This document shows positions 5,250-60,608 of a stretch of DNA of 64,000 nucleotides, piece after piece. The notes beneath the pieces were generated by a model, which saw nothing but the letters and a program-made list of their open reading frames with translations, made no database searches and was not told the DNA's origin. The DNA comes from a virus, in IMG/VR virus record IMGVR_UViG_2937877337_000001, positions 9,026 to 73,025 of that record. One strand, given 5' to 3'. Each line of letters begins with the position of its first letter. The first letter of the stretch is position 1. The position numbers and the translations under genes were made by a program.

Positions 5250-7775
5250 ATGGCAAGTGCTCCCACGCTCGACAGCGTGCTTGATTCCGTCCGTCCGCTA
5301 ATCGAGGCCGGCGCGGCGCTGCATTGGTTGGTGCCGTTCGAAAAACGGCCAATCGCGAGAGATTGGTCAGCCGCAGCCGTGCAAACGGAGGCGTCGCTTC
5401 GCGCGAGCTACCGCGACAACGCCAACATCGGCATCCGGCTCGGTGAGCCGTCGAAGACCGAGGCTGGCTACCTTCATGTTTTCGATCTCGACATCCGAAA
5501 GCCCGAACTCGCCGCCGAGGCGTGGGCCGCAGTCGAGGCGCTTTGGCCCGGCGCGCGCACGCTGCCATCGGTCATCAGCGGTTCGGGCGGCGAGAGCCGC
5601 CACCTGTATTTTGTCGCCGAACAGCCATTGCGCAAGAAGACCCTGGCTCAGTCGAATGGCTTCGAGAAGCTGTGGGACGATCGGCAGCAGAAGTTCGTCG
5701 TCAAGCGCGACTGGATGATCGACCTGTTCGGCACGGGCGTCCAGGTCGTGCTGCCGCCCTCGATCCATCCCGACACCAAGCTTCCCTACCGATGGGAGCG
5801 CCCGCTCGATCTCGACATGATCGGCTTTGGCATCGGCCCAATCATTCCCGCCGAGGCGATCGAGAAATGGGGCGTGAAGACCTCCGTCGTCGAGGCCGGC
5901 GACGAGGAAGACGAACTTTTCGATCTCACCCGCTCCGAGCCAATGGACCTGGACGCGGCGCAGATCAGCGACATTCTCAAGCACATTCCCAACGACGGGG
6001 CCGGCGCCCACTATGACGACTATGTGCAGGTCGGCATGGCCTTGCATCACCAGTTCCGGGGCTCGAACGAGGGCTTCGAACGCTGGTGCGAATGGGCGAA
6101 GCAATCGGAGAAGTTTGACGCCAAGAACGCGGCTCTGCGCTGGCGTTCGTTCAGTCAGGATTCCAAGAACCCCGTCCGCATGGCGACGCTGATCCAGATC
6201 AGCCAGACCAACAAGCTCAAGGCCGAGTTCGATTTCGACGATGACGATGACGACGGCTTCGACAACCTGCCCGCTGTCATCGAGAAGAACGACCTCTCCG
6301 ATTTGCTCGGCGTGGCTGACGGCAACGATCTCTCCGATTTGCTCGGCGACGGTCCCACGTCCGCCGCGAAAGCGGACAAAAAGGACGCTGTTGATCCTGA
6401 CTGGCTGAGCAAGTTGCATCGCAACGAGGAAGGCGAGATCAAGAGCACCCTGCCCAACGTCGGCTTGATCGTCAATAATGACCAGCGGATGCGCCTGGTC
6501 GCCGCGTTCAATCAGTTCAGGCAAGAAATCGTGCTGATCGCAGAGCCGAAGCAGGCCCGAAAGAAGCGCGACTCAAGTCACGATCCGGTCAATCTGGAAG
6601 GCGAAATCTGGAAGCTCAAGGACCCGCTGAACGGCGACAACTGGACCGACAGCCACGACACAGCGATTCGCCACATCATTGAGTCCAAGACGCAGTTGAA
6701 GGGTTACGGGATCAAGGTCACTGACCGCGATCTGCGCGGTGCAATCGACATGAGCGCGCAGAAGCGCTCCTTCCACCCCGTCAAGAAGCTGCTCGCCTCC
6801 GAGACATGGGATGGCAAGCCCCGCGTTGAGAGCCTGTTCATTGATTACCTCGGCTGCGACGACAACGAGTACAACCGCCAGGCTTCGTTGATGACGTTCG
6901 TCGGCGCCGTGGCGCGCGTCATGCGGCCGGGCCACAAGTTCGACTTCGTGCCGATCCTTGAAGGCGCCCAGGGCAAGGGCAAATCCACGTTCATCGAAAT
7001 CCTCGGGTTGCAGTGGTATAACGAACTGACCGGCGACATCAGCGACCCGAAGCAGATGGTCGAAGTGATGCAGGGCTCGTGGATTTTGGAAATCGGCGAG
7101 CTTTCCTCCATGGCCCGCGCCGAAGTCAACGACCTGAAAGCCTTCGTCAGCCGCACACACGACAAGGTGCGTCTCGCCTGGGAGAAGCGAGCCAAGGAAT
7201 TCCCTCGGCAGTGCATCTTCATCGGCTCGACCAATGACCGCGAGTACCTGCGAGACCAGACCGGTGGCCGGCGCTTCTGGCCGATCGTCTGCAAGCTGGT
7301 GGGGCAGATCGACAATCCCCGGCTGCGCCGGGAAATTATGCAGGTATGGGCCGAGGCGCTGCACATCTTCCACGAGATGGAGAAGCAGTACAACGGCACC
7401 CTGCCGCTGTTCCTGACCGACCAGGCCGCCGAGCAGGCCCTCGTCATGCAGGAGAGCCGCCGCGTCGAGAGCAGTGAAGAGATGCTGGCGGGCAAGATCG
7501 AGGCGTGGCTTGACCAGCCTGTCGGCACCGACGAGGACTTCGACGATCTGGACCCGAATGCCCCGAAGACCTTCCGCAACGAGACCTCGGTTCAGCAGAT
7601 TTGGGAAGAGATGCTGCGCCGCGACGGCTCGGTCCCGCACACCGAAGCCATGAAGATCGGCAAGGCCATGCTGATCGTCGGGTGGCATCGCACCGAGGGT
7701 CCGGTTACAGCCCGAGAAATCAACAAAAAATACGGAAAGTGTCGCGTCTACGTGCGACCCGGAACTGAGATATAA
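5250..7775 (+). CDS. primase-polymerase (prim-pol N-domain) / PriCT-1 / VirE-D5-like P-loop NTPase replication initiator
   Basis: 841 aa. Prim-pol-like N-terminal region (LHWLVPFEKRPIARDW...HVFDLDI). PriCT-like HYDDYVQVGMALHHQF. Walker A GAQGKGKST and Walker B-like CIFIGSTND. Internal acidic linker with a duplicated NDLSDLLG. Confidence 0.75.
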   Translation: MASAPTLDSVLDSVRPLIEAGAALHWLVPFEKRPIARDWSAAAVQTEASLRASYRDNANIGIRLGEPSKTEAGYLHVFDLDIRKPELAAEAWAAVEALWPGARTLPSVISGSGGESRHLYFVAEQPLRKKTLAQSNGFEKLWDDRQQKFVVKRDWMIDLFGTGVQVVLPPSIHPDTKLPYRWERPLDLDMIGFGIGPIIPAEAIEKWGVKTSVVEAGDEEDELFDLTRSEPMDLDAAQISDILKHIPNDGAGAHYDDYVQVGMALHHQFRGSNEGFERWCEWAKQSEKFDAKNAALRWRSFSQDSKNPVRMATLIQISQTNKLKAEFDFDDDDDDGFDNLPAVIEKNDLSDLLGVADGNDLSDLLGDGPTSAAKADKKDAVDPDWLSKLHRNEEGEIKSTLPNVGLIVNNDQRMRLVAAFNQFRQEIVLIAEPKQARKKRDSSHDPVNLEGEIWKLKDPLNGDNWTDSHDTAIRHIIESKTQLKGYGIKVTDRDLRGAIDMSAQKRSFHPVKKLLASETWDGKPRVESLFIDYLGCDDNEYNRQASLMTFVGAVARVMRPGHKFDFVPILEGAQGKGKSTFIEILGLQWYNELTGDISDPKQMVEVMQGSWILEIGELSSMARAEVNDLKAFVSRTHDKVRLAWEKRAKEFPRQCIFIGSTNDREYLRDQTGGRRFWPIVCKLVGQIDNPRLRREIMQVWAEALHIFHEMEKQYNGTLPLFLTDQAAEQALVMQESRRVESSEEMLAGKIEAWLDQPVGTDEDFDDLDPNAPKTFRNETSVQQIWEEMLRRDGSVPHTEAMKIGKAMLIVGWHRTEGPVTAREINKKYGKCRVYVRPGTEI

Positions 7776-7796
7776 TCGATCATCGAATAGGATTGA

Positions 7797-7822
7797 ATTG
7801 ACCCGCTTCGGCGGGTTTTTTC
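7797..7822 (+). terminator. rho-independent terminator after the primase gene
   Basis: gacccgcttcggcgggtc stem followed by a T6 run. Confidence 0.6.
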
Positions 7823-7829
7823 ATGCCAA

Positions 7830-9010: not shown

Positions 9011-9033
9011 TTCACGTTTAATGTGAAAGTCAC
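9011..9033 (+). promoter_or_regulatory. dyad motif tTCACGTttaatGTGAAagtcac, 16 nt upstream of the 9050 start
   Basis: Near-identical copy at 11444-11468. Confidence 0.55.
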
Positions 9034-12804: not shown

Positions 12805-13407
12805 ATGCCCGAATTCATTTTGGACTCATCCGGCCGCGTTGACATGCCGCCACCTGCCGCGCCGCTCAGCTTTTCGGACCTGGACGCTTTCACGCAAGGC
12901 TATATCGAAGCGATTTTCTTTACCAATGAATGCCCGCAAGTCGACACGGAAGAATTCAACACGGCCGAGCATCAAGCCGCCATGGTGGAAGGCGCGGCCG
13001 ATGGAGTCTTGCCGTGCGATGTCGGTTTCGCCGATTTGGCGCCCGAGACCTTGCAAGCGATCATTGCCGATTGCAGCGCCTGGCAGGTCGCAAACGCGGA
13101 ATTGCTGGCGGCAGCCTATGCCCGCAACTATGAACCCGAGCAAGCCGGCCGCGACTATTGGTACACGCGAAACGGCCATGGAGTCGGCTTTTGGGATAGG
13201 TCCGAATTGGAACCGGACTCGGCCGAATATGAAGCGCTTACGGCCGAGATGGTCGAAAACCGCGATATCGCGGCAGCATGGCAAGCTGCCTATGACAAGC
13301 GCTCAGTTTTGAATGAGGAGTCGCTAGGCGAAAAGCTCAGCAAAGCCTGCCGCTATCGCACGGTTGACGTGTATTTCGGCGACGATGGAAAGGTGCATTT
13401 GTCATGA
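12805..13407 (+). CDS. highly acidic hypothetical protein (200 aa), DNA-mimic / anti-restriction candidate
   Basis: Very D/E-rich with aromatic patches. Motif copy directly upstream. Confidence 0.55.
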   Translation: MPEFILDSSGRVDMPPPAAPLSFSDLDAFTQGYIEAIFFTNECPQVDTEEFNTAEHQAAMVEGAADGVLPCDVGFADLAPETLQAIIADCSAWQVANAELLAAAYARNYEPEQAGRDYWYTRNGHGVGFWDRSELEPDSAEYEALTAEMVENRDIAAAWQAAYDKRSVLNEESLGEKLSKACRYRTVDVYFGDDGKVHLS

Positions 13408-13952: not shown

Positions 13953-14182
13953 CGGCGCTGCCATGGGATGACTTGAAAGTTTGTTTTGCGTGCGGCGACA
14001 ATACAGAACGCCTTTGGAACGCGATGGATAGCGGGCGATTGACGCTGCCAACGGGCTGGCAATTGAACGAAACCAGTATTTCTGGAGCATCTGGCTATGT
14101 CGCAATTTTCCGCGTCGACGTGCTGCCAGTTCCGGCCGATGCTTACAGGGTCAAAGCCGAATTGAGGCGCTGGACAAGATGA
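13949..14182 (+). CDS. hypothetical protein (77 aa)
   Basis: ATGA-coupled on both sides. Confidence 0.45.
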   Translation: MTALPWDDLKVCFACGDNTERLWNAMDSGRLTLPTGWQLNETSISGASGYVAIFRVDVLPVPADAYRVKAELRRWTR

Positions 14183-15333
14183 CGGCGCTGCAAATCGGCC
14201 ATGGCGTCGCTATCCCCTGGCGCTACCTGTCACGGCATATCGGCATTTTTGGCGCTACAGGAACGGGCAAGTCGACGACGCTAGGCGCCATTGCCGAGCG
14301 TTCGCCTTGCCCGGTTTTGGTTCTGGACGCGAAAGGCGATTTGGCGTCGCTCGGGCAGCATCTCTTGCGGCCGGCAATGCGCGTCGACGCCATGGGCGCC
14401 GATTTGATCGCACGCGCGCTAGACCTGAGTGAAGCGCAAGCCGGCGCCCTTCAAATCGCGCTTGCATGGGCGGAAGATTCCGGCCGCGCCGTTGCCACAC
14501 TGGCAGACTTGCGCGACCTGTTGAATGACGCCACGCGGCACGATTTAAGCCGCGACTATGGGCTGTTATCTCCCGTTTCCGTGGCTGCCGTCCAACGTGC
14601 TCTATTGCGCTTGGAACGCGGCGCCGCATGGGTCTTTCAAGACTCGCGCCATGATCCGCGCGACACGCAAGGAATCACGGTTTACGCGGCAGCCGAGTTG
14701 ACGGCGCTACCAGGTCTTTATGGCGCCTTTGTCGCTCATACGCTGGAACGGCTTTATTCCGGTCTCGGCGAAGTCGGCGACACGGCAGCGCCTGGACTCA
14801 TGGTCCTAATCGATGAGGCGCATTTGATCTTTGACGGCGCCACGGCTGCAATCGTGCGACGGATCGAACAAATCACGCGACTCATTCGATCGAAGGGAGT
14901 CGGGCTTATCTATGTCACGCAATCCCCTTCTGACTTGCCGCACATTGTCGCCGGGCAGCTTGCCACGCGGATTCAGCACGCGTTGCGCGCTTCCACGCCG
15001 CAGCATCACAAGGCGCTAAAGGCGGCTGCCGAGACCATGCCGGGCAGTATCAACGCGGCAAGCATTCTCGGGCTTGCTACCGGGCAGGCAATGGTTAGCA
15101 CGCCAGACAAGGCCGGCAAGCCGCTACCAGGTCGAGTCGTCGCAATCCAGCGCGGCCGGCTGCCATTGCACGCGGTTGATTTGCCGCCTGCCAGCGTGCC
15201 ACGGCAGCGCCTGAGACCTGGCGAGCCGAGCCGAGCGGCGCCGGCCGCGACACGTCCTAAACCGTGGTGGCATTGGCCGCTAATCCTGGCGGCCGTCCTA
15301 TGGGGACTCGTGGCGCTAGGTCTTGTGAAGTGA
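14179..15333 (+). CDS. HerA/FtsK-like (DUF87-type) P-loop ATPase with C-terminal transmembrane helix
   Basis: Walker A GIFGATGTGKSTTL. Walker B MVLIDEAHLIF. C-terminal WWHWPLILAAVLWGLVALGLVK. Confidence 0.6.
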   Translation: MTALQIGHGVAIPWRYLSRHIGIFGATGTGKSTTLGAIAERSPCPVLVLDAKGDLASLGQHLLRPAMRVDAMGADLIARALDLSEAQAGALQIALAWAEDSGRAVATLADLRDLLNDATRHDLSRDYGLLSPVSVAAVQRALLRLERGAAWVFQDSRHDPRDTQGITVYAAAELTALPGLYGAFVAHTLERLYSGLGEVGDTAAPGLMVLIDEAHLIFDGATAAIVRRIEQITRLIRSKGVGLIYVTQSPSDLPHIVAGQLATRIQHALRASTPQHHKALKAAAETMPGSINAASILGLATGQAMVSTPDKAGKPLPGRVVAIQRGRLPLHAVDLPPASVPRQRLRPGEPSRAAPAATRPKPWWHWPLILAAVLWGLVALGLVK

Positions 15334-21040: not shown

Positions 21041-21216
21041 TGTTCAGGCTCAAAATCACACCACCAGACGTTCTGAATTTGGCGTCCGCCGTCATGGCCG
21101 AATGCCAGCAGCCGAGACCGAGCTATCACCAGGCAAACGGATGGGCCTGCAAGCTTTGGTTCGACGAGAGCAACGCTCTCGCTGATCGCATCATGTTCGA
21201 GAGCGGAAACCGATGA
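21040..21216 (+). CDS. hypothetical protein (58 aa)
   Basis: TGATG overlap with the upstream gene. Within the frame of ORF 20962..21216. Confidence 0.4.
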   Translation: MFRLKITPPDVLNLASAVMAECQQPRPSYHQANGWACKLWFDESNALADRIMFESGNR

Positions 21217-21725
21217 CCTGCATCGTCGCAATCGTCCATCAGGGCGCCGTCTATGTCGGCGGCGACAGCGCGGCCAGCACCGATGTCGCAGTGGAGACCC
21301 GTCGCAACGCCAAGGTCTTCAACAACGGCGACTATCTGTTCGGCTACACCGGTTCCATCCGCGTCGGCCAGCAACTGGAATACTCGGAGGCGGTGCAGCC
21401 CCTGCCGGAGGGCACCGATCTCGTGCGCCATTTGGTCGTTCACCTGGTGCCGCTGCTGCAGAAGCTCGCAGGCAAGGAAGGCATCGACGAACTGATCGTC
21501 GCTCACGGCGATCGGCTCTGCAAGATCGCGGCAGACTACTCGGTCGCCGACTATCCCGAGCACGCGGCGGCCGGTAGCGGCGAACAATATGCCATTGGAA
21601 ACCTGTTCGGCAGCCACGATGCGCCCGTGGTGCGGATACGCCGCGCTTTGGCCGCAGCCGAAGCCAACTGCCCCGGCGTCCGTGCGCCGTTCGTTATCAA
21701 ATCAACGCAAAGGAGACAGTCATGA
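21213..21725 (+). CDS. HslV / proteasome-beta-like Ntn-hydrolase (170 aa)
   Basis: MTCIVAIVHQGAVYVGGDSAAS aligns with HslV [21 protein letters not shown] (Thr2 nucleophile). K in AKVF aligns with Lys33. GSGEQYA aligns with GSGGPYA. Confidence 0.5.
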   Translation: MTCIVAIVHQGAVYVGGDSAASTDVAVETRRNAKVFNNGDYLFGYTGSIRVGQQLEYSEAVQPLPEGTDLVRHLVVHLVPLLQKLAGKEGIDELIVAHGDRLCKIAADYSVADYPEHAAAGSGEQYAIGNLFGSHDAPVVRIRRALAAAEANCPGVRAPFVIKSTQRRQS

Positions 21726-26139: not shown

Positions 26140-26952
26140 ATGAACACGGTAATTGTTTACGGACCACAGGGCTGCGGCAAGACGACAAACGCGCAGGCGC
26201 TGCTGAAGCACTTCGGATGCGACAAGCTGCGTGACGATTGGACTTTATCCCGGCACCTGACCGAAGGCGCATTGCATCTTACGTCTGACGAAATGTCGGC
26301 AGAGGCAACGACGTTTCGTCAACTTTTCAGCAACGTTCGCGCGAAGCTGGTTTCATTCGATGAGGCCGTGGCCGAGATCAACGCTATGCTTGCGAAACCG
26401 ACTGATGGCTCTAAAGCCAGCAACCCAAAGGATTCTGTCGGAGCCCGCAAGTGGCGCCAGTACGCCACAGTGCCAGCCACGGTCATCGCCGAACTCGGCG
26501 TCGCGATGCTCGAAGGCGCGGCAAAATACGGGCGTCACAACTACCGCGTAGCCGGCGTCCGCGCCTCGGTGTACGTCGATGCCGCGAAGGGTCATATCGA
26601 CCAGTGGTGGGAGGGCGAGGACTATGACCCCGACGTTCCCGGCCAACGCCTGTCCCACATCACAAAGGCGATCGCCAGCCTGGTCGTCCTGCGCGATGCG
26701 ATGATCCAGGATATGCTGAATGACGATCGGCCGCCGAAGGCGAAACTCGACAAGGTGCGGGCTGACATGCAGGTCACGGTCGAAGCGATTCTGGACAAGT
26801 ACCCCGAGCCAAAGGCGCCCTTCACCGAGATCGGCGTGAAGAACGGCCAGGGTGTAACCGAGGTCAGGGTCGACGCCAACATCCATCTGACCGATATGAA
26901 CTTCAATAAGGTGATAAGCGGCATCCTCGTACCAGGCAAGGGGATGGCGTGA
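26140..26952 (+). CDS. P-loop NTPase fused to a phage nucleotide-pyrophosphohydrolase-like domain (KYGRHNYR motif)
   Basis: N-terminal VIVYGPQGCGKTT Walker A. C-terminal GARKWRQYATVPATVIAELG...GAAKYGRHNYR resembles phage dATP/dGTP-pyrophosphohydrolase-type domains. Weak. Confidence 0.5.
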   Translation: MNTVIVYGPQGCGKTTNAQALLKHFGCDKLRDDWTLSRHLTEGALHLTSDEMSAEATTFRQLFSNVRAKLVSFDEAVAEINAMLAKPTDGSKASNPKDSVGARKWRQYATVPATVIAELGVAMLEGAAKYGRHNYRVAGVRASVYVDAAKGHIDQWWEGEDYDPDVPGQRLSHITKAIASLVVLRDAMIQDMLNDDRPPKAKLDKVRADMQVTVEAILDKYPEPKAPFTEIGVKNGQGVTEVRVDANIHLTDMNFNKVISGILVPGKGMA

Positions 26953-27250: not shown

Positions 27251-27532
27251 ATGCCATATCCCAAGAACAGCGACGACGACGATATCACCGAGACCAGCCA
27301 GACAGTCGCGGCCGGTCAGCTTCGCGCTCTCATCGAGCGCATCGAGCGGCTTGAGGAAGAAAAGAAGACCATCGCCGACGACATCAAGGAAATCTACGCG
27401 GAGGCAAAGGGGACCGGTTTCGACACGGCTGCGATCCGCGTGCTCGTCAGATTGCGCAAGAAGGATCAGGCTGAGCGCCAGGAGGCCGAGGCGATCCTTG
27501 ATCTCTACAAGGCCGCGCTCGGCATGGTCTGA
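27251..27532 (+). CDS. DUF2312/GapR-like nucleoid-associated DNA-binding protein
   Basis: [37 protein letters not shown]...[12 protein letters not shown]...EAILDLY matches the conserved DUF2312 (UPF0335, Caulobacter GapR) core. Confidence 0.65.
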
Positions 27533-27573: not shown

Positions 27574-27963
27574 ATGAAGCTCGGCGAACTGCGCGCGGCG
27601 ATCCGCAAGACGAAGGAAACCCCGTTCGTCAACATCTACCCCTTCCCCGGCACCGACAAGGGCTTCCGCTTCGCCTTGCAGAAGACGCCACTGCTCGCCG
27701 AACTCGAAGTCGTCTATCCGGGCGGCAAGGCCGTGGAAACCCACCTGGAATTCGACGTGGCGACGGGCAAGCTTTTCTGTCCTACCTACGAGTCGTACAT
27801 GGGCACCACGAAGGAGGAAACGGCCGCCGCCTTCGAAAATTCGACCGTGCAGCCCGGTTCCGACTCGAGCGACGACGATCTCGACCTCGACCTCGGCGAT
27901 GTGCCGGTACGCGGCGTGAGCCCCGTCGAACGCAGCAACGATCTCGACGACCTGTTGGTGTGA
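27574..27963 (+). CDS. hypothetical protein (129 aa), C-terminus SNDLDDLLV
   Basis: AGGAG-like ribosome-binding site. Acidic motif. Confidence 0.5.
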   Translation: MKLGELRAAIRKTKETPFVNIYPFPGTDKGFRFALQKTPLLAELEVVYPGGKAVETHLEFDVATGKLFCPTYESYMGTTKEETAAAFENSTVQPGSDSSDDDLDLDLGDVPVRGVSPVERSNDLDDLLV

Positions 27964-27966
27964 TCC

Positions 27967-28362
27967 ATGACCGACGCTGAACTCGGTCTCAAGCTCGTCA
28001 CGGCGCTGCGCTCGATCTCGGACTCGCGGGATGCTCGCGGCGCCCCGGTGAGAGGCAAGCTCACCAGCCTCGCCTTGAACATCGGGCCGGAAGGCTGGCA
28101 GGCCATTTCCCAGTTCTGGTTGACCAACGACTGGAACGTTTGCGTTGGCAAAGACCCGGCCGCTTGCCTGCTCGACGTGCTGACCAAGCAGCCCGATCTG
28201 TCGGAGCCCTACGATCCGAAGAAGCGGCTCATCGCTGCGGCGAAGCCGGTGCTTCCGGCGAAGGAGATCATGGTCGCCGGCAAGGCTGCGATGAGCGAGG
28301 CGGCAGCGGTGTTCCCGCCACCTGCGTCAAGCGCCAACGACCTGGACGATTTGCTTGTCTGA
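27967..28362 (+). CDS. hypothetical protein (131 aa), C-terminus ANDLDDLLV
   Basis: Same C-terminal heptapeptide as the upstream gene. Confidence 0.5.
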   Translation: MTDAELGLKLVTALRSISDSRDARGAPVRGKLTSLALNIGPEGWQAISQFWLTNDWNVCVGKDPAACLLDVLTKQPDLSEPYDPKKRLIAAAKPVLPAKEIMVAGKAAMSEAAAVFPPPASSANDLDDLLV

Positions 28363-28601
28363 TGCGGCGCTTTTCCTACGAGTGGATCGAGGAAGAAACG
28401 GAGCCGCATTGGACCGAAAACCTCTATGCGATATTTGACTCCGTACACGGACACAGCGAACAATGCGCCGTGGCCTATACAATAACGCGGGACGACGCAG
28501 AACGTATCGTTGACGCGCTGAACTTGGCTTACGACAATACGGCCACCACCAAATCCAAGCCGAAGACCAATATATACGATCTTAGCGATCTTCTTAACTA
28601 A
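28362..28601 (+). CDS. hypothetical protein (79 aa), C-terminus YDLSDLLN
   Basis: TGATG-coupled. Sits in ORF 28140..28601. Confidence 0.45.
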   Translation: MRRFSYEWIEEETEPHWTENLYAIFDSVHGHSEQCAVAYTITRDDAERIVDALNLAYDNTATTKSKPKTNIYDLSDLLN

Positions 28602-28630: not shown

Positions 28631-30034
28631 ATGGGCGGCAGGGTAACACTACATGCGGGCGACAACCGTGTCAGCTTGCGCCGCCTTATCGATCAGGGCG
28701 TCCGCGTCCATTCGGTTGTGTGTGATCCGCCCTACGCCTTGACCAGCATCACCAAGCGCTTCGGCAAGAAGGGCTCGGCCTGCGCGCGCACCGAAGGCAA
28801 CGACGGCAGTTTCGCGCGGCTGTCGGGTGGCTTCATGGGAAAAATTTGGGATGCCACCGGCATCGAGCGCGATCCTGAATTCTGGAAGCTTGTCTACGAA
28901 ATCCTGCTGCCGGGTGGCTACGTGTTCGCCTTCTCTGGTGCCCGCACTGGCCACTGGCAGGCTTGCGCCATGGAAATAGCCGGCTTCATCATGCACCCGA
29001 TGCACGGATGGGTGTACGGCCAAGGCTGGCCAAAGCCGACCTACATAAAGGGCGTTCCTGAATGGGAAGGATGGGGCTACGGCACGCAATCGCAAAAGCC
29101 GGCGCTTGAGCCGATCTACCTCGGCCAGCGCCCCTTCAGCACCAAGACTGCCATGCCGAGCATCCTCAAGCACGGTGTCGGCGCCTTCAACATAAAGGGC
29201 TGCACCGTTGGCGATGGCAGCGAAAGCATCTCGCGCGATGGCGAAGCCGCCATGGATCGTCGCTACAACGAGAGCGGTGCAACGGACTTCGCGGCGCTGC
29301 CTGGTGCTGCCCGTGGCGGCTCACCGGAAGGGCGCGGGCCGGCCAACCTGATCCTGGACGGCTCGCCGTCCGTCGTAGACCTGTTCCCTGTCACGCGCAG
29401 CGGCAAGCCTGGTGTGATGCGCAAGGGCCGCAACGACGGAGCCACATACGGCGCCGAGAGCCGCGCGCCAGGCACAGCGATGACCGGCTACGGCGACGAA
29501 GGCTCGAACGCCAGGTTCTTCCACCAGTTCGCGCCGACCGAGGAAGACTACCAGTGGGCGATCGATGCCGGCCGGATCTCCGACGACCGTGGCGACGCCA
29601 TCATTTACAACGCAAAGGCGAACAAGGCTGACCGCGCGGCATCCAAGCATCCGACCGTCAAGCCGATCGCCCTGCTGCAATACCTCATTCGCCACATCAC
29701 CCCGGCCGGTGGCGTCGTGCTCGATATGTTTGCCGGGTCAGGCACGACCGCCGAGGCCGCGAAGCGCGAGGGGTTCGACTGCATCCTCATGGAAGCGGAA
29801 CCAGAATACCTTGAATTTTTACACACCCGCTTTCATTTTGCGAGTGATACTGATATAGGAATAAATGCCTTGGCGCAGAAAGGAGCAACTGATGAAAATT
29901 TCATCAATGCCGATTTATGTCTGATTGACATTCTTGGTGAAAACGTGTTGTCGACGCGAGACGGCTTTGAGCCTGTCGCGCAGCCCGGATCGTTAGATTT
30001 CGCAGGCCACGATCTGACAGCCTTGTTGTATTAA
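28631..30034 (+). CDS. beta-class DNA methyltransferase (DPPY motif; N6-adenine likely), with low-GC C-terminal extension
   Basis: Motif IV VVCDPPY precedes motif I LDMFAGSGTT; HPTVKPIALLQ. Motif copy at 28605-28628 directly upstream. Confidence 0.75.
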   Translation: MGGRVTLHAGDNRVSLRRLIDQGVRVHSVVCDPPYALTSITKRFGKKGSACARTEGNDGSFARLSGGFMGKIWDATGIERDPEFWKLVYEILLPGGYVFAFSGARTGHWQACAMEIAGFIMHPMHGWVYGQGWPKPTYIKGVPEWEGWGYGTQSQKPALEPIYLGQRPFSTKTAMPSILKHGVGAFNIKGCTVGDGSESISRDGEAAMDRRYNESGATDFAALPGAARGGSPEGRGPANLILDGSPSVVDLFPVTRSGKPGVMRKGRNDGATYGAESRAPGTAMTGYGDEGSNARFFHQFAPTEEDYQWAIDAGRISDDRGDAIIYNAKANKADRAASKHPTVKPIALLQYLIRHITPAGGVVLDMFAGSGTTAEAAKREGFDCILMEAEPEYLEFLHTRFHFASDTDIGINALAQKGATDENFINADLCLIDILGENVLSTRDGFEPVAQPGSLDFAGHDLTALLY

Positions 30035-52291: not shown

Positions 52292-52783
52292 CTAGATGTC
52301 CAGGTCGTCGCTGTCGGCGGCCTTCTTGCCACCCTTCTTCTTGGCAGCAGCTTCCGCCGCTTCCTTCGCGGCCTGCTCCTTGGCAGCAGCTTCCGCCGCG
52401 TCCTTCTCGGCCTGCTCCTTGGCGGCAGCTTCCGCCGCGTCCTTCTCGGCCTGCTCCTTGGCGGCAGCTTCCGCCGCGTCCTTCTCGGCCTGCTCCTTGG
52501 CAGCAGCTTCCGCCGCGTCCTTCTCGGCCTGCTCCTTGGCGGCAGCTTCCGCCGCGTCCTTCTCGGCCTGCTCCTTGGCAGCACGCTCATCTTCTTCCTC
52601 GGCCGAGGAAATGATGCCGGCCTTCACGAGGTCCGCTTCGGTTGGAATGACCGCCGCGCGAACGTCTGGACGTAGAACGTAGTCCAGTTCCGCGCCTTCC
52701 AGTTCGACGATCTGGCCGGGCAGCACGACCGGAGGATTCGCTTTCGGATCGCGCTGAATGGTGTGAATTGCCTTGATGTACAT
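52292..52783 (-). CDS. FI-position protein with 5-6 tandem 13-aa repeats (AKEQAEKDAAEAA) and C-terminus DSDDLDI
   Basis: 163 aa. N-terminal globular part, then Ala/Glu/Lys repeats encoded by 39-bp DNA repeats. Confidence 0.55.
   Translation of the reverse strand: MYIKAIHTIQRDPKANPPVVLPGQIVELEGAELDYVLRPDVRAAVIPTEADLVKAGIISSAEEEDERAAKEQAEKDAAEAAAKEQAEKDAAEAAAKEQAEKDAAEAAAKEQAEKDAAEAAAKEQAEKDAAEAAAKEQAAKEAAEAAAKKKGGKKAADSDDLDI
52340..52590. repeat. 39-bp tandem repeat, about 6 copies, within CDS
   Basis: cttggcagcagcttccgccgcgtccttctcggcctgctc. Read directly. Confidence 0.8.
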
Positions 52784-54487: not shown

Positions 54488-55731
54488 TTAGCCCTTGACC
54501 ATTGCGAGCGTCTTTGCGGCGCGGCTCATTTCCGTTTTGTCGGTTTCGGCGTTGGCGTCGGACTCGATGCCGGCGCCTTGGCCGCGCATGGCGTCACGCA
54601 GCATTCCTTCCGGTGCGCCTGCCGTGGGCTTGGACTCTTCGCCCAAGGTGGCGAGGAACGCGCCCGCTTCGTCAGCGGACATGCTGGTCTTGAGGGCGGC
54701 GTTGAGCGCGGCGGTCGGCCGAGTTTTGCCGGCGTCGGAGCCGAGGATCGCGCTGATGCGAGCCATTGCTTCAGCCGCGCCCTGCTTGATGCCTTCCGCG
54801 AGACCTTCGGCCTTACCGGCTGCCTTGGAATTGTCGAGGTCGACCTGGGTGAGTTCGGCCATTTGTTCATCTCCTTCTGAGAGTGTGGCCCCAAAGGCCG
54901 TGATAGCGTCGTCAAGGGCTCCGATTTCATCTGCCAAGCCGTTGTCGATCGCCTGTTGAGCCATGAAGGTGCGCGCGCCGGTCGCGTTGACCGCCTCGAC
55001 ACTCATGTCCCGGTTTCTCGCCACCGAAGCGGCGAATTGCTCGTGGAATGCATCCACGCGCTCCTGAATCCGCTCGCGCGCCCCCTCGGACAGTTTCTCG
55101 TAGGGGTTGCCCTCCATCTTGTCGGGCTGCGAGCGGATGATGTTGACCGTGATGCCCGCTTCTTCGAGCATCTTGGAATATTCGACGGCGACCACGACGA
55201 CGCCGATGGAGCCGACGCCACCAGTGCGGGCGACCGTGATATGATCACTCGCGGAAATGATGTTGTAGGCGGCCGAGTAGGCGTGTTCTGCGGCGAAGCC
55301 ACGGATCGGCTTCTTGCCTCGGAACGCGTAAATCTTGTCCACCAGGTCGAAGTTGCCCGAGACCATGCCGCCGCCAGAGTTCACGACCAGGGCGATGCCC
55401 TTGACGTTGGTGTCCTCGACGCCGCGCTTGATGGCCTGGTAGATATACTCGTAACCGGTCGCCCACGCCCCGTATGCGTAGGGGAAGTCGTTCAGCAGAA
55501 GGCCCTTCACCGGCACGTGGAGGATGCCGTTCTTCACGACGTAAGGGCGAAGGTATGAGCGCCAGTCGTCGCTCGCATACCAGAAGTTGTCATCTGCCTT
55601 TTCAGCACCGGCCTTCTCGATGACGCCCATGCGCTCGCCGAAAGCGCTCAACAGCGTCTGCAGCCAAGCGCCCTGCCCCTCGTCGATGAGTGCGGGCTGA
55701 TCCTGGAATTGTGCGATGATAGGGTTCACTG
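54488..55731 (-). CDS. S49-family (ClpP-like) prohead protease fused to scaffold region (lambda gpC/Nu3-like)
   Basis: GTG at 55731 with GGAGG ribosome-binding site, overlapping the portal stop (GTGA). ALVVNSGGGMVSG...HAYSAAYNIISA serine-protease core. Ala/Glu-rich C-terminus. Confidence 0.75.
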
Positions 55732-57405
55732 CTTGCCTCCATCGCTTGGCGTGGCCGTAAGCGCGTTCTGCATGTCTTTGCTGTTCTGGTCGTAGATCGA
55801 CGGATTGCCGTAGGACTCGTCGAGCTTGCGCTCGCGGGCGATCTGGCGAGCGGTCTTGCGCCAGTCGCCGCCTGACATTTTGGCGATCTCGATTTCCTTG
55901 GTGGAAAGGCCGTTCACGATCTTGAGGACCGCAGCCTGCGTTTCCTTCAACGGATCGATCTGACCTTGGCCGGCGCCGATCCACTCGCACGCGCTGAACG
56001 CCTCGGCGTTGAGTCCGTCATAGAAACGCGGCACGTCGCGGCGCTTGAAGCACTCAAGTTCGTTGTAGTTGATCGCTTCCTCAAGCCAGAGGCGATAGAC
56101 GAAGTTCGCCACCTTGTCGGCGACGGCTCGCTTGATCGCCATCATGGTCTTCAAGGTCTCGCCGAGCGATGCTCGGGCCGACGAATAGTTTGTCTGCGTG
56201 TAGTCGCGCGACAACTGCTCGTAGGAAACGCCAAGCGCAGCCGCGATGTAGCGCAGCAAGCTCTGCTCGAACTTGTCGCCGGCCGGGCTGTTCGCACCGG
56301 GGTTCTGGATTTTGAGTTTGGTGCCAGGTGCAAAGATCGGAATCTTCGCGCCATCCATGTGCAGGTTCTTGGCGCCGCTGGCGTACTCGGAAATCGTATT
56401 TAGGTACGCGTTCATCCAGGTCGTCGTTGCGTTGCCGTCCCCGGCACCAGCGCCGAGGGCTGCCGACACGTCCTGCGGAATCTCTGACTCGATCGACGCG
56501 GCATAGGTCGCTGCAACGACGGCTCGTTCCAGTTCCGTCTTGCGGAAGTGCTTGGTCATCCGCATTTCGCTGAGCGCGGACACCATTGCCGCCACGCCGC
56601 GCGTCTGATCGGGACGCAGTTCCTCGAAGACGTGGTTGATGATCATCCGGCCCCACGACTTGCGGGCAGGAATGCGCTTCCATGTCGGCGTCACGATCAA
56701 ATTCGAGCGATAGTCGCTCGGATGCGCGTTGCGAATGTAATAGGCGATCGGTGCGCCGAAGGTATCGGACTCGACACCCTTGCGGAGTCGGCTGCCCTTG
56801 TACGGCGTAAAAATGCGGTCGCGCGGGTCGGACAGCCGAGCCGGATCGATCATCTGCACGGCGCTTGCGAACGGTCGGCCATCGTCGAACCATTCGGCCG
56901 ACTGCAACACTTCGCCGCTCATCAGATGCACACCAACCGCGAGACGAACGATATCGGTCAGGGTCTTGGTGCGCCTGGCATCGGGCCAGCACTGATCGCT
57001 CTCAGCCCACAGCGTGAACTTGGTCTCGATTTCTTCCTGCGCCTCGGCTTCCCACTTCTCGTCATCCTTGCCGAACAGGACTTTGGTTTCCGGCTTGGCG
57101 TTCAGAAGAAAACGGGTGCCGACGATCGAGTCCTTGCGGATTGTCGCGCCGCCAGACACGTAGGCGTCGTTGCGCACCGTATCGAGCGCACGGGCATCCA
57201 GGTCGTCCTTGAGCGGGAGCAGATCGGCATCAGCCGAACGCAGCGCGGGCTGCCAGCCTGCGAGCCGGTTCAGCTTGTCGGCGCCGTCATAGGCGACACC
57301 GCCCGCTGCCACCGCCGAGGCAACGGGCGGCTGCACTACCTGGATCGCCGGGGAGACACCGGCATCCGATCCAAGCAGGTCCGAGAGATCGAGGTTGCCG
57401 CTCAT
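55726..57405 (-). CDS. portal protein, lambda gpB-like; N-terminus MSGNLDLSDLLGSD
   Basis: About 560 aa. Trimmed to the Met immediately after the gpW stop. Confidence 0.75.
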   Translation of the reverse strand: MSGNLDLSDLLGSDAGVSPAIQVVQPPVASAVAAGGVAYDGADKLNRLAGWQPALRSADADLLPLKDDLDARALDTVRNDAYVSGGATIRKDSIVGTRFLLNAKPETKVLFGKDDEKWEAEAQEEIETKFTLWAESDQCWPDARRTKTLTDIVRLAVGVHLMSGEVLQSAEWFDDGRPFASAVQMIDPARLSDPRDRIFTPYKGSRLRKGVESDTFGAPIAYYIRNAHPSDYRSNLIVTPTWKRIPARKSWGRMIINHVFEELRPDQTRGVAAMVSALSEMRMTKHFRKTELERAVVAATYAASIESEIPQDVSAALGAGAGDGNATTTWMNAYLNTISEYASGAKNLHMDGAKIPIFAPGTKLKIQNPGANSPAGDKFEQSLLRYIAAALGVSYEQLSRDYTQTNYSSARASLGETLKTMMAIKRAVADKVANFVYRLWLEEAINYNELECFKRRDVPRFYDGLNAEAFSACEWIGAGQGQIDPLKETQAAVLKIVNGLSTKEIEIAKMSGGDWRKTARQIARERKLDESYGNPSIYDQNSKDMQNALTATPSDGGKQ

Positions 57406-57617
57406 CCCCACACCGGCCTCAACGGACGCGTCGGGCCGGTGCAGCCTGCGACTTCCTGTTCGAGTTCGCGGATATAGGCTTTCAAACGGCTGGCGTTGGC
57501 TGGCGTGTAGCGAACCGATTCGCCATTGGCGTCGCGCACTTCCACCGCCGACGTGCCGGTTTGCAGTCGGTGGTAGGCGGTCTTGGCTTCGGCAAGAAGG
57601 TCGGCGGTGGTCGCCAT
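57402..57617 (-). CDS. head-tail joining protein, gpW-like
   Basis: 71 aa between TerL and portal. Confidence 0.55.
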   Translation of the reverse strand: MATTADLLAEAKTAYHRLQTGTSAVEVRDANGESVRYTPANASRLKAYIRELEQEVAGCTGPTRPLRPVWG

Positions 57618-57629
57618 CGGTCATCCAGC

Positions 57630-57666
57630 GTGAATTTCACGTATAGATACCGTAAACGTGAAACTA
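57630..57666. promoter_or_regulatory. motif TTTCACGTatagataccgtaaACGTGAAa between TerL and gpW genes
   Basis: Inside the late operon. Confidence 0.5.
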
Positions 57667-57705
57667 AAGCAATATAGAATTGATTTTCAATAATATAGTG
57701 AAATT

Positions 57706-59889
57706 CTAGGCGAGCTTGGCCGCGAGGTCTGCGAATGTCATTTCACCCTTCTTTGCCGTGGTTGGCTGAGCCACTGCCTCGCCGCCGAACACGAGATCGT
57801 TCTCATCCCACGGCGCAGCCCATCCGGGCGGCTCGTCGTAGTTCAGCCGATCGATGTTGAAGGTGACATAAGGCACCGTATTTTCCAGCGGCCGGATCGC
57901 CAGGCCGAGCGCATAGTACGCCAAGTCGAACGCTTCGTTGCGGCGCTTGCGCGGGTTTTCCCAGCCCTTCTCAGTCCGTATTTCCGTGGTCATCTGGTTG
58001 TAGAACCATTCGGGCATCCAGTCGGGGAATCGCAACATGCCGCCAACGGTGTCATCAGCGCCGGTATCCTCGACGCGGCGCGCCAGCATGACCGAGAGGC
58101 GATCCTTCATCAGGTTCGAATTGAGCAGGATCACCGGCACGTCGCCCTTGGCGATGGCGAGTTTTCCCTTCTGGCTGGAATCCGGCCAGGTGGTGCTCGC
58201 GTGCGGCTTGGTCTTCGACGGTTCACCCTTGATCAAACAGAACCGACGATGCAACCCGTCTCCCTGCTGCCGCAGCCGGCGCCAGAAATTATAGGCGTGA
58301 CCCGTGACACCCTCGGCGCCGCCCGAGTCACTTCCGGTCGCCCGGATACGCATTCGCCGGCCGCTGCCGTCCGCCAATGGGTAGGTTTTCAGGATGACCT
58401 GTTCTTTCAGTACATCCCAATCCTCGGCGAACGCGGCCGGGTCAATTGGCAGTTTCTCGCCAGCGCCGTTGAGACGATCCGACAGACGCACCTTGAAGCC
58501 GTCGATCACCACCATGTCGCCGGTCGCAGTGAAGCCGTGCACCTGGACGACAAACGCGGACTTCTGCACGTCAACCGTGGCAATCGCAAAACGAACGCCG
58601 TGCGGCACCGATGGTTCGTCCTCGGTCGATCCCCAGTCCTCGGCATTGGTCTTCAGGTCTTCCGGCGACCGCTCGGACAGGCGCGACGCGGGAATGTAAT
58701 AGGAGCCCTGGTCAGTCGTGACCGTTTTGCGCAGCGGCGCGTCGTCGCCAGTGTCGGCCAGCGCCTTGATCGCCCGCAGATGCTTTTCGACCAGTTGGCC
58801 CCAATCCTGATAGGCCGCAGCCGGCCCCTTCATCCAGAATGACGCGATGCTCGACCGCGCTGCCTTCATGCCGTTGCGCTCGACGATCTTCTGCTCGGCA
58901 GGCAGCCAGATCAGGCCGTCCTTCACCCAGCGTCCACCCTCGTTGAGTTCGTCCTTCATCTGAGGCTCAAGCACGCCGCCGCACTGGTACGTCGGACAGA
59001 GCATGTATGTCTGCTCGCGCGCCTCCATGATGTCCTCGCTATCGGGATAGCGAAGCAGCTTGAAGTCGGGTTCGAACGCCTCATTGCAATGCGGGCACGA
59101 CCAATACCAGCGGCGCCGGTCGCCACGGTTGTACAGTTCGAAAATGCCTCGGATCGGCGGCGCCTCGTGCGGGGTGCTTGGCGACCACTTTGGATCAGTG
59201 ATCTCCTTGTTCGGGTTTGGCGATGCCTCCGCGAAGGTCATGCCGAATCGCTTGAACGTCGTCGTTCGCATCTGCGCCAAGTCAAAGGGGTTGCCTTCGC
59301 CGTCTACGTTGTCGTCCATGCGCTCGTAGTCGATCAAGCCGACGCGCGGCATGGTGATGCCGGACAGGTTGCTGGCCGTTGGATAGGTCAACAGCAAGCG
59401 CATCCCCGAATCGAATTCCTTGTCGAAGGTGTTGTCGTCCTTGCGGTGTTTAAGCTGGTGCTCGCGGACAGATGTCGATGCCTGCAAATAGCGCTCAAGA
59501 TCGCCCTTCGACCACTTGCGCGCGTTCTCGCGATCCATGTGCACGAGCATCATGTCGGCCGGATCGGTCATGACAGTGTGCGATGTCCAATTCAGATGGA
59601 TCATCGTCTTGCCCGTTCGAGCGGGACCGATGAAAACGCAGCCCTGAAAGTCGAGGCTGGTCAGTTCGTCCTGCGGCTCTTGAATGTAGGGCGTGCGCTT
59701 GCGAGACCACTTGACGCTGTGACCGCCGCCGCTTCCGATGCGGGTGTATTCCTCCGCAGCCTCGGTGACGCTCATGCGCTTTTGCGGCTGCAAGGTCTCG
59801 AAGCCGCGAGCAACGATGCTCTCTATGGTCTGATGCTTCGCTTCAGCTATCAGTTCCGCCACTGATGGCGGTCGCATTCTCGCGGTCAT
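57706..59889 (-). CDS. terminase large subunit, GpA family
   Basis: 727 aa. Walker A FIGPARTGKT. Cys cluster CPHCNEAF. Lambda-like arrangement, so cos-type packaging is likely. Confidence 0.8.
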   Translation of the reverse strand: MTARMRPPSVAELIAEAKHQTIESIVARGFETLQPQKRMSVTEAAEEYTRIGSGGGHSVKWSRKRTPYIQEPQDELTSLDFQGCVFIGPARTGKTMIHLNWTSHTVMTDPADMMLVHMDRENARKWSKGDLERYLQASTSVREHQLKHRKDDNTFDKEFDSGMRLLLTYPTASNLSGITMPRVGLIDYERMDDNVDGEGNPFDLAQMRTTTFKRFGMTFAEASPNPNKEITDPKWSPSTPHEAPPIRGIFELYNRGDRRRWYWSCPHCNEAFEPDFKLLRYPDSEDIMEAREQTYMLCPTYQCGGVLEPQMKDELNEGGRWVKDGLIWLPAEQKIVERNGMKAARSSIASFWMKGPAAAYQDWGQLVEKHLRAIKALADTGDDAPLRKTVTTDQGSYYIPASRLSERSPEDLKTNAEDWGSTEDEPSVPHGVRFAIATVDVQKSAFVVQVHGFTATGDMVVIDGFKVRLSDRLNGAGEKLPIDPAAFAEDWDVLKEQVILKTYPLADGSGRRMRIRATGSDSGGAEGVTGHAYNFWRRLRQQGDGLHRRFCLIKGEPSKTKPHASTTWPDSSQKGKLAIAKGDVPVILLNSNLMKDRLSVMLARRVEDTGADDTVGGMLRFPDWMPEWFYNQMTTEIRTEKGWENPRKRRNEAFDLAYYALGLAIRPLENTVPYVTFNIDRLNYDEPPGWAAPWDENDLVFGGEAVAQPTTAKKGEMTFADLAAKLA

Positions 59890-60608
59890 TCGTCACCAGG
59901 GATCATCGTGGGCCGCGTGTCGGTGTCGGCCAGTTCCTTCTCGATCTCGCGAGAATGCGCGTTGGTCTGAAATTCGCGCGGGAAGTCTTCGAGCTTCGTC
60001 TTGATCTGCGCGTTCATGTCGGCCACGCGATCGACGAGGAAGTTGTACTGCTCGTCGCTCAGCTTCTCACGGCCGGGCATATCCTCGATCCACATCTTGC
60101 TCTCGTGCCGGATCAGCATCGAGACGCGGGCGAAGGTCATCAGCACATCTTCATCGTGCCAAAGCTGGCCGGCCGCCGTGAGCGCCCGGATGCGGGCGTT
60201 GGTCATCTCCCAATATGCCTTGGAAACGATTGGCGGAAGCGACGCCTGGTTCTGCTGCGCCAGCCAGTCTTCGATGCTGCCCTGTGGCGCGATCAGATAC
60301 GACATTGCCGTGAGGAAATCGTACATCGGCTGCTGCTTGCCGCCGTGAGTTGTCCAGTCTTCGACGGGACAGCGTTCGAGCCGCTTCTGAATTTGCTTGG
60401 GATAGGCGCCGAGAATGTTGGCGAAGAAGGTCACACCCTGCGGGCGACGGAATTCCGTGTAGTGAGGCAGCTTCTTCGCAGCCTGCTCCTGCAGCCGGCG
60501 CGCTGCTTCTTCCTTGGTCGGTCGGCCGCGCCTGGGGCGACCCGCATCAGGATTGTATGCCGGCTCGTCGTCGCCGAGCAGGTCGGAGAAGTCGTTGTCT
60601 TCGATCAT
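59886..60608 (-). CDS. terminase small subunit (putative); N-terminus MIEDNDFSDLLGDDE
   Basis: Trimmed to the ATG at 60608. Immediately upstream of TerL (ATGA-coupled). Basic DNA-binding-like N-terminal region. Confidence 0.5.
   Translation of the reverse strand: MIEDNDFSDLLGDDEPAYNPDAGRPRRGRPTKEEAARRLQEQAAKKLPHYTEFRRPQGVTFFANILGAYPKQIQKRLERCPVEDWTTHGGKQQPMYDFLTAMSYLIAPQGSIEDWLAQQNQASLPPIVSKAYWEMTNARIRALTAAGQLWHDEDVLMTFARVSMLIRHESKMWIEDMPGREKLSDEQYNFLVDRVADMNAQIKTKLEDFPREFQTNAHSREIEKELADTDTRPTMIPGDE

Follow-up and report, generated by a model that had tools for sequence, protein, structure and literature searches.

A recurrent acidic peptide on replication, modification and packaging proteins of a Chi-like Mesorhizobium phage as a candidate docking tag

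Why a primase-helicase, a portal protein and a small terminase subunit of one phage should carry almost the same short peptide is the question raised by a 64-kb stretch of viral DNA (positions 9,026 to 73,025 of IMG/VR record IMGVR_UViG_2937877337_000001; "the window" below). A first-pass annotation of this stretch had described the peptide as [ND]-D-[LF]-S-D-L-L-[GN] and had proposed that it is a docking tag for one common partner. We consider it likely, with a probability of about 0.7, that the peptide (hereafter the tag) serves as a short linear motif by which proteins dock on a single common receptor. That the tag binds protein, that a single receptor reads it and what this receptor is are all matters that we infer from sequence comparisons. 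The tag would consist of an acidic stretch ending Phi-x-[DE]-L-L-G (Phi, hydrophobic residue), displayed on disordered N- or C-termini or on inter-domain linkers. It would tether many unrelated phage proteins to one common receptor site, which would be a basic and hydrophobic groove.

Copies of the peptide and the proteins that carry it

A six-frame scan of the window returned seven copies of D[LF][SD]DLL, every one at a place named by the first-pass annotation and in the coding frame of a real gene, and no match in the remaining five frames (Table 1). From the amino-acid composition of the 88 predicted proteins 0.007 copies are expected, and none of 300 within-protein shuffles yielded even one match. 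This expectation, together with the proteome enrichment test described below, rules out an artefact of composition. The copies are found on both strands and differ in their synonymous codons (GAT/GAC, CTC/CTG/CTT/TTG, TCC/AGC/TCG). Since the codons differ and the copies occur only in coding frames, it is the peptide and not the DNA that is conserved or selected, and a DNA-level repeat or regulatory site is ruled out on the same grounds. A 12-16-mer example of the tag peptide is GNLDLSDLLGSDAG.

Table 1. Positions in the window of tag copies, related tails and neighbouring genes
Feature	Gene	Position	Strand	Remark
Tag copy 1, NDLSDLLG	primase-helicase, 5250-7775	6288..6311	+	aa 347-354; PriCT-2/VapE linker
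Tag copy 2, NDLSDLLG	primase-helicase, 5250-7775	6324..6347	+	aa 359-366; PriCT-2/VapE linker
C-terminal NDLDDLLV	orphan protein, 27574-27963	27937..27960	+	next after GapR-like gene
C-terminal NDLDDLLV	orphan protein, 27967-28362	28336..28359	+	no family match
C-terminal YDLSDLLN	orphan protein, 28362-28601	28575..28598	+	no family match
Degenerate C-terminal HDLTALLY	N6/N4 DNA methylase, 28631-30034	30008..30031	+
N-terminal LDLSDLLG (MSGNLDLSDLLG)	lambda-gpB-type portal, 55726-57405	57370..57393	-	aa 5-12
N-terminal NDFSDLLG (MIEDNDFSDLLG)	small terminase (TerS), 59886-60608	60573..60596	-	aa 5-12
Basic stretch GRPRRGRPTKEE	TerS, 59886-60608	~60470-60540	-	aa 23-45, after the tag; R-G-R-P, AT-hook-like
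Free acidic-hydrophobic tip DDFDLDI	single-stranded DNA-binding protein (SSB), 703-1401	706..726	-	related tail, not the strict motif
Tail DDFDDLD	Cas4-like (DUF2800/PD-(D/E)XK) exonuclease, 1438-2604	1453..1473	-	related tail
Tail NDDLDL	4204-4719	4207-4224	-
Tail SDDLDI	52292-52783	52295-52312	-
DFDDLD	primase-helicase, 5250-7775	7536-7553	+	aa 763
DDDLDLDLGD	orphan protein, 27574-27963	27871-27900	+	inside the gene
End GEIPF	2667-2945	2670-2684	-
End KKDDLIPFFDLGDDL	helix-turn-helix (HTH) protein, 4886-5227	5186-5224	+	contains DDLIPFF
AlpA-family small HTH gene		60765..60947	-	Pfam Phage_AlpA; directly upstream of TerS; untagged here
N-terminus of 678-aa DNA polymerase		1-297	-	cut by window start
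HerA-like ATPase		14179-15333	+	internal DLRDLLN
HslV-family peptidase		21213-21725	+
GapR-like DNA-binding protein		27251-27532	+	PF10073, E = 3e-33
O-antigen acetyltransferase-like moron		33861-34991	+
Large terminase (TerL)		57706-59862	-
681-aa SPFH/Band-7 protein		61955-64000	-	start coincides with window end

The window represents a temperate phage or prophage of Mesorhizobium that is Chi-like (Casjensviridae-type). Its portal shares 86-96% identity with entries named "phage portal protein" in Mesorhizobium genomes, some of them on megabase contigs. The nearest isolated phages at the DNA level are RcRios and RcCWillis (~70% identity, in patches), temperate RcD-cluster phages of Rhodobacter capsulatus, and the portal of Ruegeria phage V16 shares 55% protein identity with that of the window; all three phages are classified under Casjensviridae. 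The Chi-like genes of the window encode a Prim-Pol/PriCT-2/VapE primase-helicase, a DUF2800 PD-(D/E)XK exonuclease, a GapR-like protein, an N6/N4 methylase and an SSB of the Enc34/T7 gp2.5 fold (Pfam Enc34_ssDNA-bd; Foldseek matches 5odl and 1je5). The head module is of the lambda type, with a Nu1-like TerS, a gpA-type TerL, gpW, a gpB-type portal, an S49 protease and gpD- and gpE-like proteins. The type of the window polymerase recurs in the Rc phages and, as a distant relative, in PS6. In V16, Chi and Carli the place in this module is taken by an unrelated polymerase, a non-orthologous replacement inside one phage group.

The tag is conserved in orthologues, on the portal, TerS and primase of related phages; the two findings that would have refuted the first-pass annotation, absence from orthologues and an explanation by composition, both fail to apply. 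Of the 120 closest portal homologues (57-96% identity), nearly all carry it at the N-terminus, several of them in two copies; behind the tag come about 25 variable residues rich in A/V/S/P, and the conserved fold follows. Variants of the portal tag include DLTDLLG, DLSELLD, DLSHLLG, NLNNLLG, PELAELLGD and FEDLLG, and part of the homologues at ~50% identity retain Phi-x-x-L-L-G. A scan of species-representative genomes found tagged prophage portals in Rhizobiales (Mesorhizobium, Bradyrhizobium, Rhizobium, Bosea, Manganibacter), Rhodobacterales, Caulobacterales (Asticcacaulis) and Sphingomonadales and in one Achromobacter; in the same scan the tag was not found on gammaproteobacterial Chi-like or lambda-like portals. 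Homology of the portal tag with MKTPTIPTLLGPDG of lambda gpB was considered and judged doubtful: gammaproteobacterial lambda-like portals have another N-terminal element, Phi-Phi-[DG]-x-x-G-x-P-L-R, to which the lambda segment probably belongs. Look-alikes of the tag in lambda gpA, Nu1 and gpC/Nu3 are no commoner than chance.

Genomes with tagged portals have kept the tag at the N-terminus of TerS as well. Aligned with Chi, Carli and PS6, it is a clade-specific insertion before the common Nu1-like HTH domain, and the only such insertion in the core-protein alignments. In the window TerS the tag stands before an R-G-R-P basic stretch and this HTH domain; similar GRP stretches occur at the start of the HTH protein 4886-5227 and of its Rc homologues. 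Both primase copies of the window lie between the PriCT-2 (aa 240-316) and VapE (aa 515-737) domains. The number of linker copies is one in RcCWillis and RcRios, two in the window and three in V16, which has a further C-terminal one; across the relatives it ranges from one to four, and of 24 viral contigs retrieved by way of the SSB, most have the linker tag. It is absent from the primase linkers of Chi, Carli and PS6, as it is from these three phages in general and from unrelated phages of the same hosts.

The recurrence on unrelated proteins proved far broader than first listed, and clade-wide the tag is found on at least 15 protein families. In relatives it stands at the C-terminus of the tyrosine integrase, of an AlpA/Xis-like protein encoded just upstream of terS (VADLLG, LEDLLA, LDQLLG...), of three methylase families (N6/N4 and two kinds of C5 methylase), of Cas4-like (V16, locus L118) and DEDDh (Rv2179c-like) exonucleases, of a DprA/YpsA-like protein and of several orphan proteins. 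It is N-terminal in an SNF2 helicase and in the GapR-like protein of V16, and in some relatives the SSB ends in it, as DDDLLG, as DLTDLL or, in one case, as five repeats of DLLG. The methylase orthologues have TDLSDLF in the Rc phages and IDALLG...IAALLA in V16 at the place of the degenerate window copy, and the orthologues of the first orphan end GLDDLLI in RcCWillis and GLDDLFV in RcRios. Among the relatives examined, neither type of DNA polymerase was ever tagged, nor were TerL, the protease, and the capsid and tail proteins. "Immunity repressor" matches (LSLDDLLE) were left out of the carrier list because LDELL-like sequence is typical of the last helix of XRE-type HTH domains.

Some side observations concern small genes near these carriers. 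In the window the three tag-bearing orphan genes directly follow the GapR-like gene; the pair formed by the latter and the first orphan is kept in RcCWillis, where the GapR-like gene is annotated "DsbA-like", and in RcRios. Two genes of relatives encode little more than the tag: a 147-aa protein between terS and terL that ends in IDDLLGTPTSIEDLL (locus L045, 7157-7600) and a 64-aa protein ending IADLLGDLL (locus L106, 12242-12436). Such proteins could be decoys or regulators of the putative receptor.

The consensus of the first-pass annotation is real in the window and too narrow for the clade, since relatives give Phi-x-[DE]-L-L-[G/A/S] with acidic residues before it. The 159 non-identical instances pooled from 55 genomes or loci have the consensus D-D-D-[L/I/V/F]-[D/S/A/E]-D-L-[L/I/F/V]-[G/A], part of which was imposed by the pattern used for collecting them. 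Seventy-five of the instances are N-terminal, 26 lie in the primase linker and 58 are C-terminal. The final residue is mostly G, A, V or N, and some SSB tips end in F. With the pattern [DENST]-Phi-x-[DE]-L-[LF], applied proteome-wide, the window, RcCWillis, RcRios and V16 (complete or near-complete) have 8-10 matches against ~1.5 expected. The five controls (Chi, Carli, PS6, and RcSwan and Paracoccus Pyei1 as unrelated phages of the same hosts) have 1-4 against ~0.8-1.7, none of them at the termini of TerS, portal or integrase.

A flexible placement had also been proposed, and it was borne out: all copies stand at N-termini, at C-termini or in the PriCT-2/VapE linker. An AlphaFold2 (AF2) model of the portal, built from a 146-sequence alignment, has a mean predicted local distance difference test score (pLDDT) of 82.7, with residues 1-36 lacking secondary structure and the fold beginning at residue 37. 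Residues 1-4 and 14-36 score below 50, the motif block averages ~51, and the tag is not docked in cis. The SSB model has a confident oligonucleotide-binding core and a free, undocked tip of low pLDDT; its conserved proximal acidic segment, DDFDTLEADDSF, is moderately confident, aa 201-210 reaching a pLDDT of 72.

The window contains a second family of acidic tails, DD[FL]D[LI], and DD[LF]D[LI] occurs four times against 0.07 expected. These tails and the L-L-G tag alternate at orthologous positions; the Cas4-like exonuclease, for example, ends PDVDDLLG in V16 and LLDDLL in locus L118. Therefore both may serve the same partner. Two further ends in the window, GEIPF and KKDDLIPFFDLGDDL, resemble the bacterial SSB tip DDDIPF and could be mimics of SSB tails; the V16 counterpart of the HTH protein with the second of these ends in the L-L tag DDISDLLA.

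Likeness within genomes and the case for one receptor

Evidence for a common partner comes from the flanks of the tag, which are alike within a genome and different between genomes. The window has N-D-[LF]-S-D-L-L-G, the Rc phages T-D-L-S-D-L-[LF] and V16 P-[SD]-[IV]-D-D-L-L-G. When the TerS and portal copies of 20 genomes were compared, 3.75 of 10 variable positions were identical between copies of the same genome and 2.73 of 10 between copies of different genomes, and none of 20,000 permutations reached the observed value (p = 5e-5). The tag segments of TerS and portal are not homologous to one another, so that phylogeny alone does not give this likeness.

The core itself also switches genome-wide. 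It is LVG in TerS (twice) and portal of locus L050; LIG, VIG or GIG in primase (twice), TerS and SSB of L111; ELI[DE] in primase and TerS of L113/114; and LLS in TerS, portal and integrase of L026. This joint switching and the co-variation of the flanks argue for one co-evolving receptor. The proposal of one partner is thus supported by the pattern that it predicts, and the singleness of the receptor is our reading of that pattern.

Tethering of many proteins to one site would give an architecture of many clients and one hub, as with sliding-clamp-binding motifs. The hub would gather proteins of replication, recombination, DNA methylation, integration/excision and packaging at one place on the phage DNA. 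A wider form of the common-receptor reading, which is possible and which we hold tentatively, is that a single hub, phage-encoded or hijacked from the host, reads a universal Phi-x-D-L-L-G label and so couples replication, modification, excision and packaging. The label would be carried by primase-helicase, SSB, exonucleases, helicase, methylases, integrase/excisionase, TerS and portal, and the small orphans (27574-28601), each a domain plus the tag, would be adaptors or competitors.

Several points weigh against one receptor. No single known hub accounts for all of the clients: portal and TerS do not fit a hub at the replisome, and the replisome proteins do not fit a hub at the packaging machine. 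The TerS/portal pairs in the permutation test were partly aligned by hand. Intragenomic copying of a mini-cassette could explain part of the likeness within genomes, although recent copying is argued against because the codons differ between copies. Finally, acidic tails can act in cis as DNA mimics, protein by protein.

Candidate receptors and other explanations

Among the candidates that can be named, the groove of the T7-type SSB ranks first and is itself unlikely; the terminase/portal machine and a non-canonically bound host beta clamp come below it, at a probability equal to each other, and the remainder falls to some other phage or host protein.

If the receptor were the T7 gp2.5/Enc34-type SSB that the phage itself encodes, the acidic-hydrophobic peptides would be taken up by the basic concave surface of this protein, and clients would be held on the SSB or handed over to it. 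Such docking is known from eukaryotes, where the basic cleft of RPA70N docks acidic amphipathic motifs of many proteins, among them ATRIP, RAD9, p53 and PrimPol. Those motifs are like the tag in being acidic-hydrophobic peptides on many DNA-transaction proteins including a prim-pol, and unlike it in belonging to another kingdom and another SSB family; moreover, here the SSB is itself tagged and packaging proteins are among the clients. The SSB tip is interchangeable with the tag in relatives and switches together with the other copies in loci L111, L100, L116 and L118. Most of the clients, namely prim-pol, SF2/SNF2 helicase, the DEDDh and RecB-like exonucleases and the DprA-like protein, look like members of an SSB interactome, and an SSB is present in every complete genome examined. 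In crystals of the Enc34 SSB (ORF6) the acidic C-terminal tail rests on the concave sheet of a neighbouring molecule (PMC5686142). On the other hand, tag-negative Chi, PS6 and Carli have an SSB of the same family, docking in the ssDNA groove would free clients on ssDNA and not recruit them, portal, TerS, integrase and Xis have no rationale as clients, and the tip is undocked in the AF2 model.

The host beta sliding clamp (DnaN) is a less probable receptor. The tag would then be a non-canonical clamp-binding motif (CBM) that recruits phage proteins to the clamp on replicating phage DNA and couples late functions to replication, as in T4 and Mu. The clients are like those of clamps and PCNA, namely exonucleases, helicases, methylases, recombinases, small regulators and, indirectly, terminase. 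Like the tag, beta-clamp motifs (QL[SD]LF, QLxLxL; MuC and Mor) occupy disordered termini, end [DE/S]-L-[FL], join many clients to one hub and are used by phage regulators. The tag, which is N-terminal, C-terminal or internal, is as independent of position as CBMs are (PMC11139829), and in Mu the MuC and Mor proteins have N- and C-terminal clamp motifs, Mor functioning with just DLF of the consensus (PMC12867686). The portal of tag-negative PS6, a Marinobacter phage (locus L009), starts MSEQLDLLQ and so has the canonical CBM QLDLL; no phage clamp was found among the ~57 of 88 window open reading frame (ORF) products scanned (Pfam or PHROGs), the window being less than the whole genome.

However, the canonical motif is Q-Phi-x-[LM]-[FL] or Q-Phi-x-[LM]-x-[FL] (PMC11139829), and the tag misses it. 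When the tag is anchored on its L-L, the pair at positions 4-5 fits the x-[LM]-[FL] anchor, being L-L (114 instances), L-I, L-F or L-V in termini or linker. Position 1, by contrast, is L, I, V or F in all 159 instances and never Gln, the residues before it being mostly D, S, E or T, and position 2 is D, S, A, E or T and not aliphatic. The hydrophobic residues are spaced i, i+3, i+4 and then followed by a conserved Gly that is foreign to CBMs, so that the tag does not belong to this class. In addition, DNA polymerase, the expected prime client, is never tagged, unrelated phages of the same hosts lack the tag, and Chi and Carli have no terminal canonical CBM at the equivalent positions, that of the PS6 portal being the only one.

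Docking onto the packaging machine (TerL or the portal-terminase complex) is just as doubtful. The tag would have begun as a tether among TerS, portal and TerL and would later have been co-opted by DNA-processing enzymes acting during packaging. The two most universal carriers, the N-termini of portal and TerS, belong to physical partners of TerL, and TerL is universal in the clade and never has the strict tag. The C-terminal tail of TerL, KKGEMTFADLAAKLA, is a basic amphipathic helix in which F-A-D-L makes a similar core. A precedent is offered by T4, in which terminase and portal contact gp32, gp55 and endonuclease VII. Against this, the C-terminus of TerS is homologous to that of lambda Nu1, which is the gpA-binding end; therefore the N-terminal tag is unneeded for binding TerL. 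The N-terminus of the lambda portal is removed in mature proheads. TerL has no clade-specific insertion, there is no precedent for primase or methylases binding terminase, and the replisome carriers are left unexplained. The lambda portal N-terminus, moreover, emerges from the wing at the portal's outer face (PMC10721106). As side observations on TerL itself, the protein has a clade-conserved N-terminal RPP[ST]-Phi-x-E-L-I segment, and its tail resembles the C-terminus of lambda gpA (KKTLADYARALSGEDE), which also has QLDLSALLASLQEED ~30 residues before its end.

Somewhat less probable again is a role in sorting or turnover. As a capsid-targeting peptide, the tag would load pilot proteins into procapsids via scaffold or protease; as a degron, it would let a host AAA+ protease keep down lytic proteins in lysogens. 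Degrons and cargo-loading peptides typically occupy termini, and a phage would profit from co-injecting such clients as integrase, methylases and primase. Cleavage converts lambda gpB to B*, and the N-terminal extension of the tagged portals is upstream of the gpB cleavage point. The clade is temperate, and presence of the tag correlates with the integrase/AlpA module; yet this correlation is phylogenetically confounded, and lambda-like tag-negative prophages are temperate too. TerS acts outside the capsid. The multiple internal copies of the primase linker, like the tandem array of five in an SSB tail, are more readily understood as avidity for a hub than as a degron. The HslV-like peptidase of the window was considered as a dedicated protease and set aside, because it lacks conservation among relatives. 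In the virion structure the N-terminal 23 residues of gpB are unresolved (PMC10721106).

The least probable explanation, which we rate as quite improbable, dispenses with a common partner: generic acidic tails, alike by convergence or composition, would fold back on each carrier's own DNA-binding surface as autoinhibitory DNA mimics, as such tails regulate T7 gp2.5, T4 gp32 and the Enc34 SSB. This would suit the DNA binding of nearly all carriers and the plain acidic tails that stand at the corresponding positions in tag-negative relatives (WDDEDDDDEV on the exonuclease of Chi, DDLDELDD on the SSB of PS6). Composition, however, cannot yield the tag (0.007 expected), the invariant L-L, frequent Gly and genome-wide co-variation of flanks and core are not expected of independent cis tails, and the portal model has no cis docking.

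DNA polymerase, suggested as the receptor by analogy with T7, is unlikely because two unrelated types occur in tag-positive phages; both types are also present in tag-negative phages, and the polymerase is never tagged. In alignments of TerL, gpW, the S49 protease, the major capsid protein and the tail proteins we found no clade-specific insertion that could form a receptor domain. The genes at 12805-13407 and 26140-26952 and the GapR-like gene, which occur only in tag-positive genomes among the complete ones, are unconvincing; the case for the GapR-like protein is weakened since that of V16 is itself tagged and Carli has a GapR-like gene without the tag. In an association test on 66 loci only two families stand out: an AlpA-like gene, the strongest, is present at 26 of 35 tag-positive and 1 of 31 tag-negative loci, and the integrase at 19 and 1. 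Both are sometimes carriers, and the signal follows phylogeny. A sequence search of the PDB with the primase linker peptide gave no match.

Some neighbouring genes of the window may be recorded here. Its accessory genes include the HslV-family peptidase, the SPFH/Band-7 protein, the O-antigen acetyltransferase-like moron and the HerA-like ATPase, whose internal DLRDLLN has the counterpart DLSDILS in RcCWillis. The gene at 52292-52783, located in the head module between the major capsid and head-tail genes, has five to six tandem AKEQAEKDAAEAA repeats; it matched no known family, and the phages compared lack a homologue.

Known docking motifs and the meaning of the tag

The first-pass annotation had stated that no such motif was described. 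Full-text literature searches for the tag peptide strings returned no phage or bacterial paper, and this part of the statement stands; the principle, however, has precedents in the tags that bind the beta and T4 clamps, in the acidic tails of T7 and in SSB tips, and the SSB of some relatives ends DDLLG. In T4, gp43, gp33 and gp55 share interchangeable clamp-binding epitopes (PMC2988020). The T4 sliding-clamp-binding motif is, like the tag, a short hydrophobic and acidic peptide that is interchangeable among unrelated proteins on a flexible linker, and it couples replication with late functions (PMC2988020, PMC7892883). As with that motif, the same short tag occurs here on several phage proteins, with linkers that vary in length and sequence. 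The T4 tags differ in being C-terminal and in binding a phage-encoded clamp, whereas the tag here is N-terminal, internal or C-terminal, the polymerase is untagged, and the carriers extend to portal, TerS, integrase and methylases.

The tails of T7 gp2.5 and gp4 are likewise acidic-hydrophobic and stand on the SSB and primase-helicase of a replication module of the T7 kind; in the present clade the gp2.5-fold SSB (in relatives) and the primase-helicase of one replication module are tagged. The gp2.5 tail binds replisome partners and also the protein's own DNA-binding surface (PMC10359462), and tails of this type mediate protein-protein contacts and compete with ssDNA (PMC10359462, PMC5686142). 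They are strictly C-terminal, however, with a terminal aromatic residue, and bind T7 polymerase, whereas for the tag, whose L-L-G core is fixed, N-terminal and internal positions are frequent. From the bacterial SSB tip DDDIPF, which has a C-terminal I-P-F with a free carboxylate, the tag differs in lacking P-F and in often not being C-terminal, and it is not of this kind. By sequence the closest peptides are the acidic LxxLL(G) peptides of E6AP (ELTLQELLGEE) and MAML1 (WMSDLDDLLGS) that papillomavirus E6 binds (PMC5760104), with acidic flanks, LxxLL and Gly. They are eukaryotic, and E6 has no counterpart here; the likeness is best regarded as convergence and shows only that such peptides can bind as amphipathic helices. 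By function, the closest are the clamp-binding tags of T4 and Mu and also the T7 gp2.5 and gp4 tails, and by defining features the tag is a member of none of these classes.

For sliding clamps and SSBs, short docking motifs are well known to organise whole pathways. No earlier description was found of a single tag shared by proteins of replication, recombination, methylation, lysogeny and packaging within one phage. If one receptor reads the tag, this receptor would be a central organiser and a single vulnerable point of the phage, and the tag would be a handle for its pull-down. The common-receptor reading, if true, would also provide an annotation rule for orphan phage proteins, by which a domain plus the tag marks a client of the hub. 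The system is experimentally tractable because the RcD-cluster relatives can be cultured and lysogenise Rhodobacter capsulatus. In phages without a clamp of their own, the tag may account for the coupling of replication, DNA modification and packaging.

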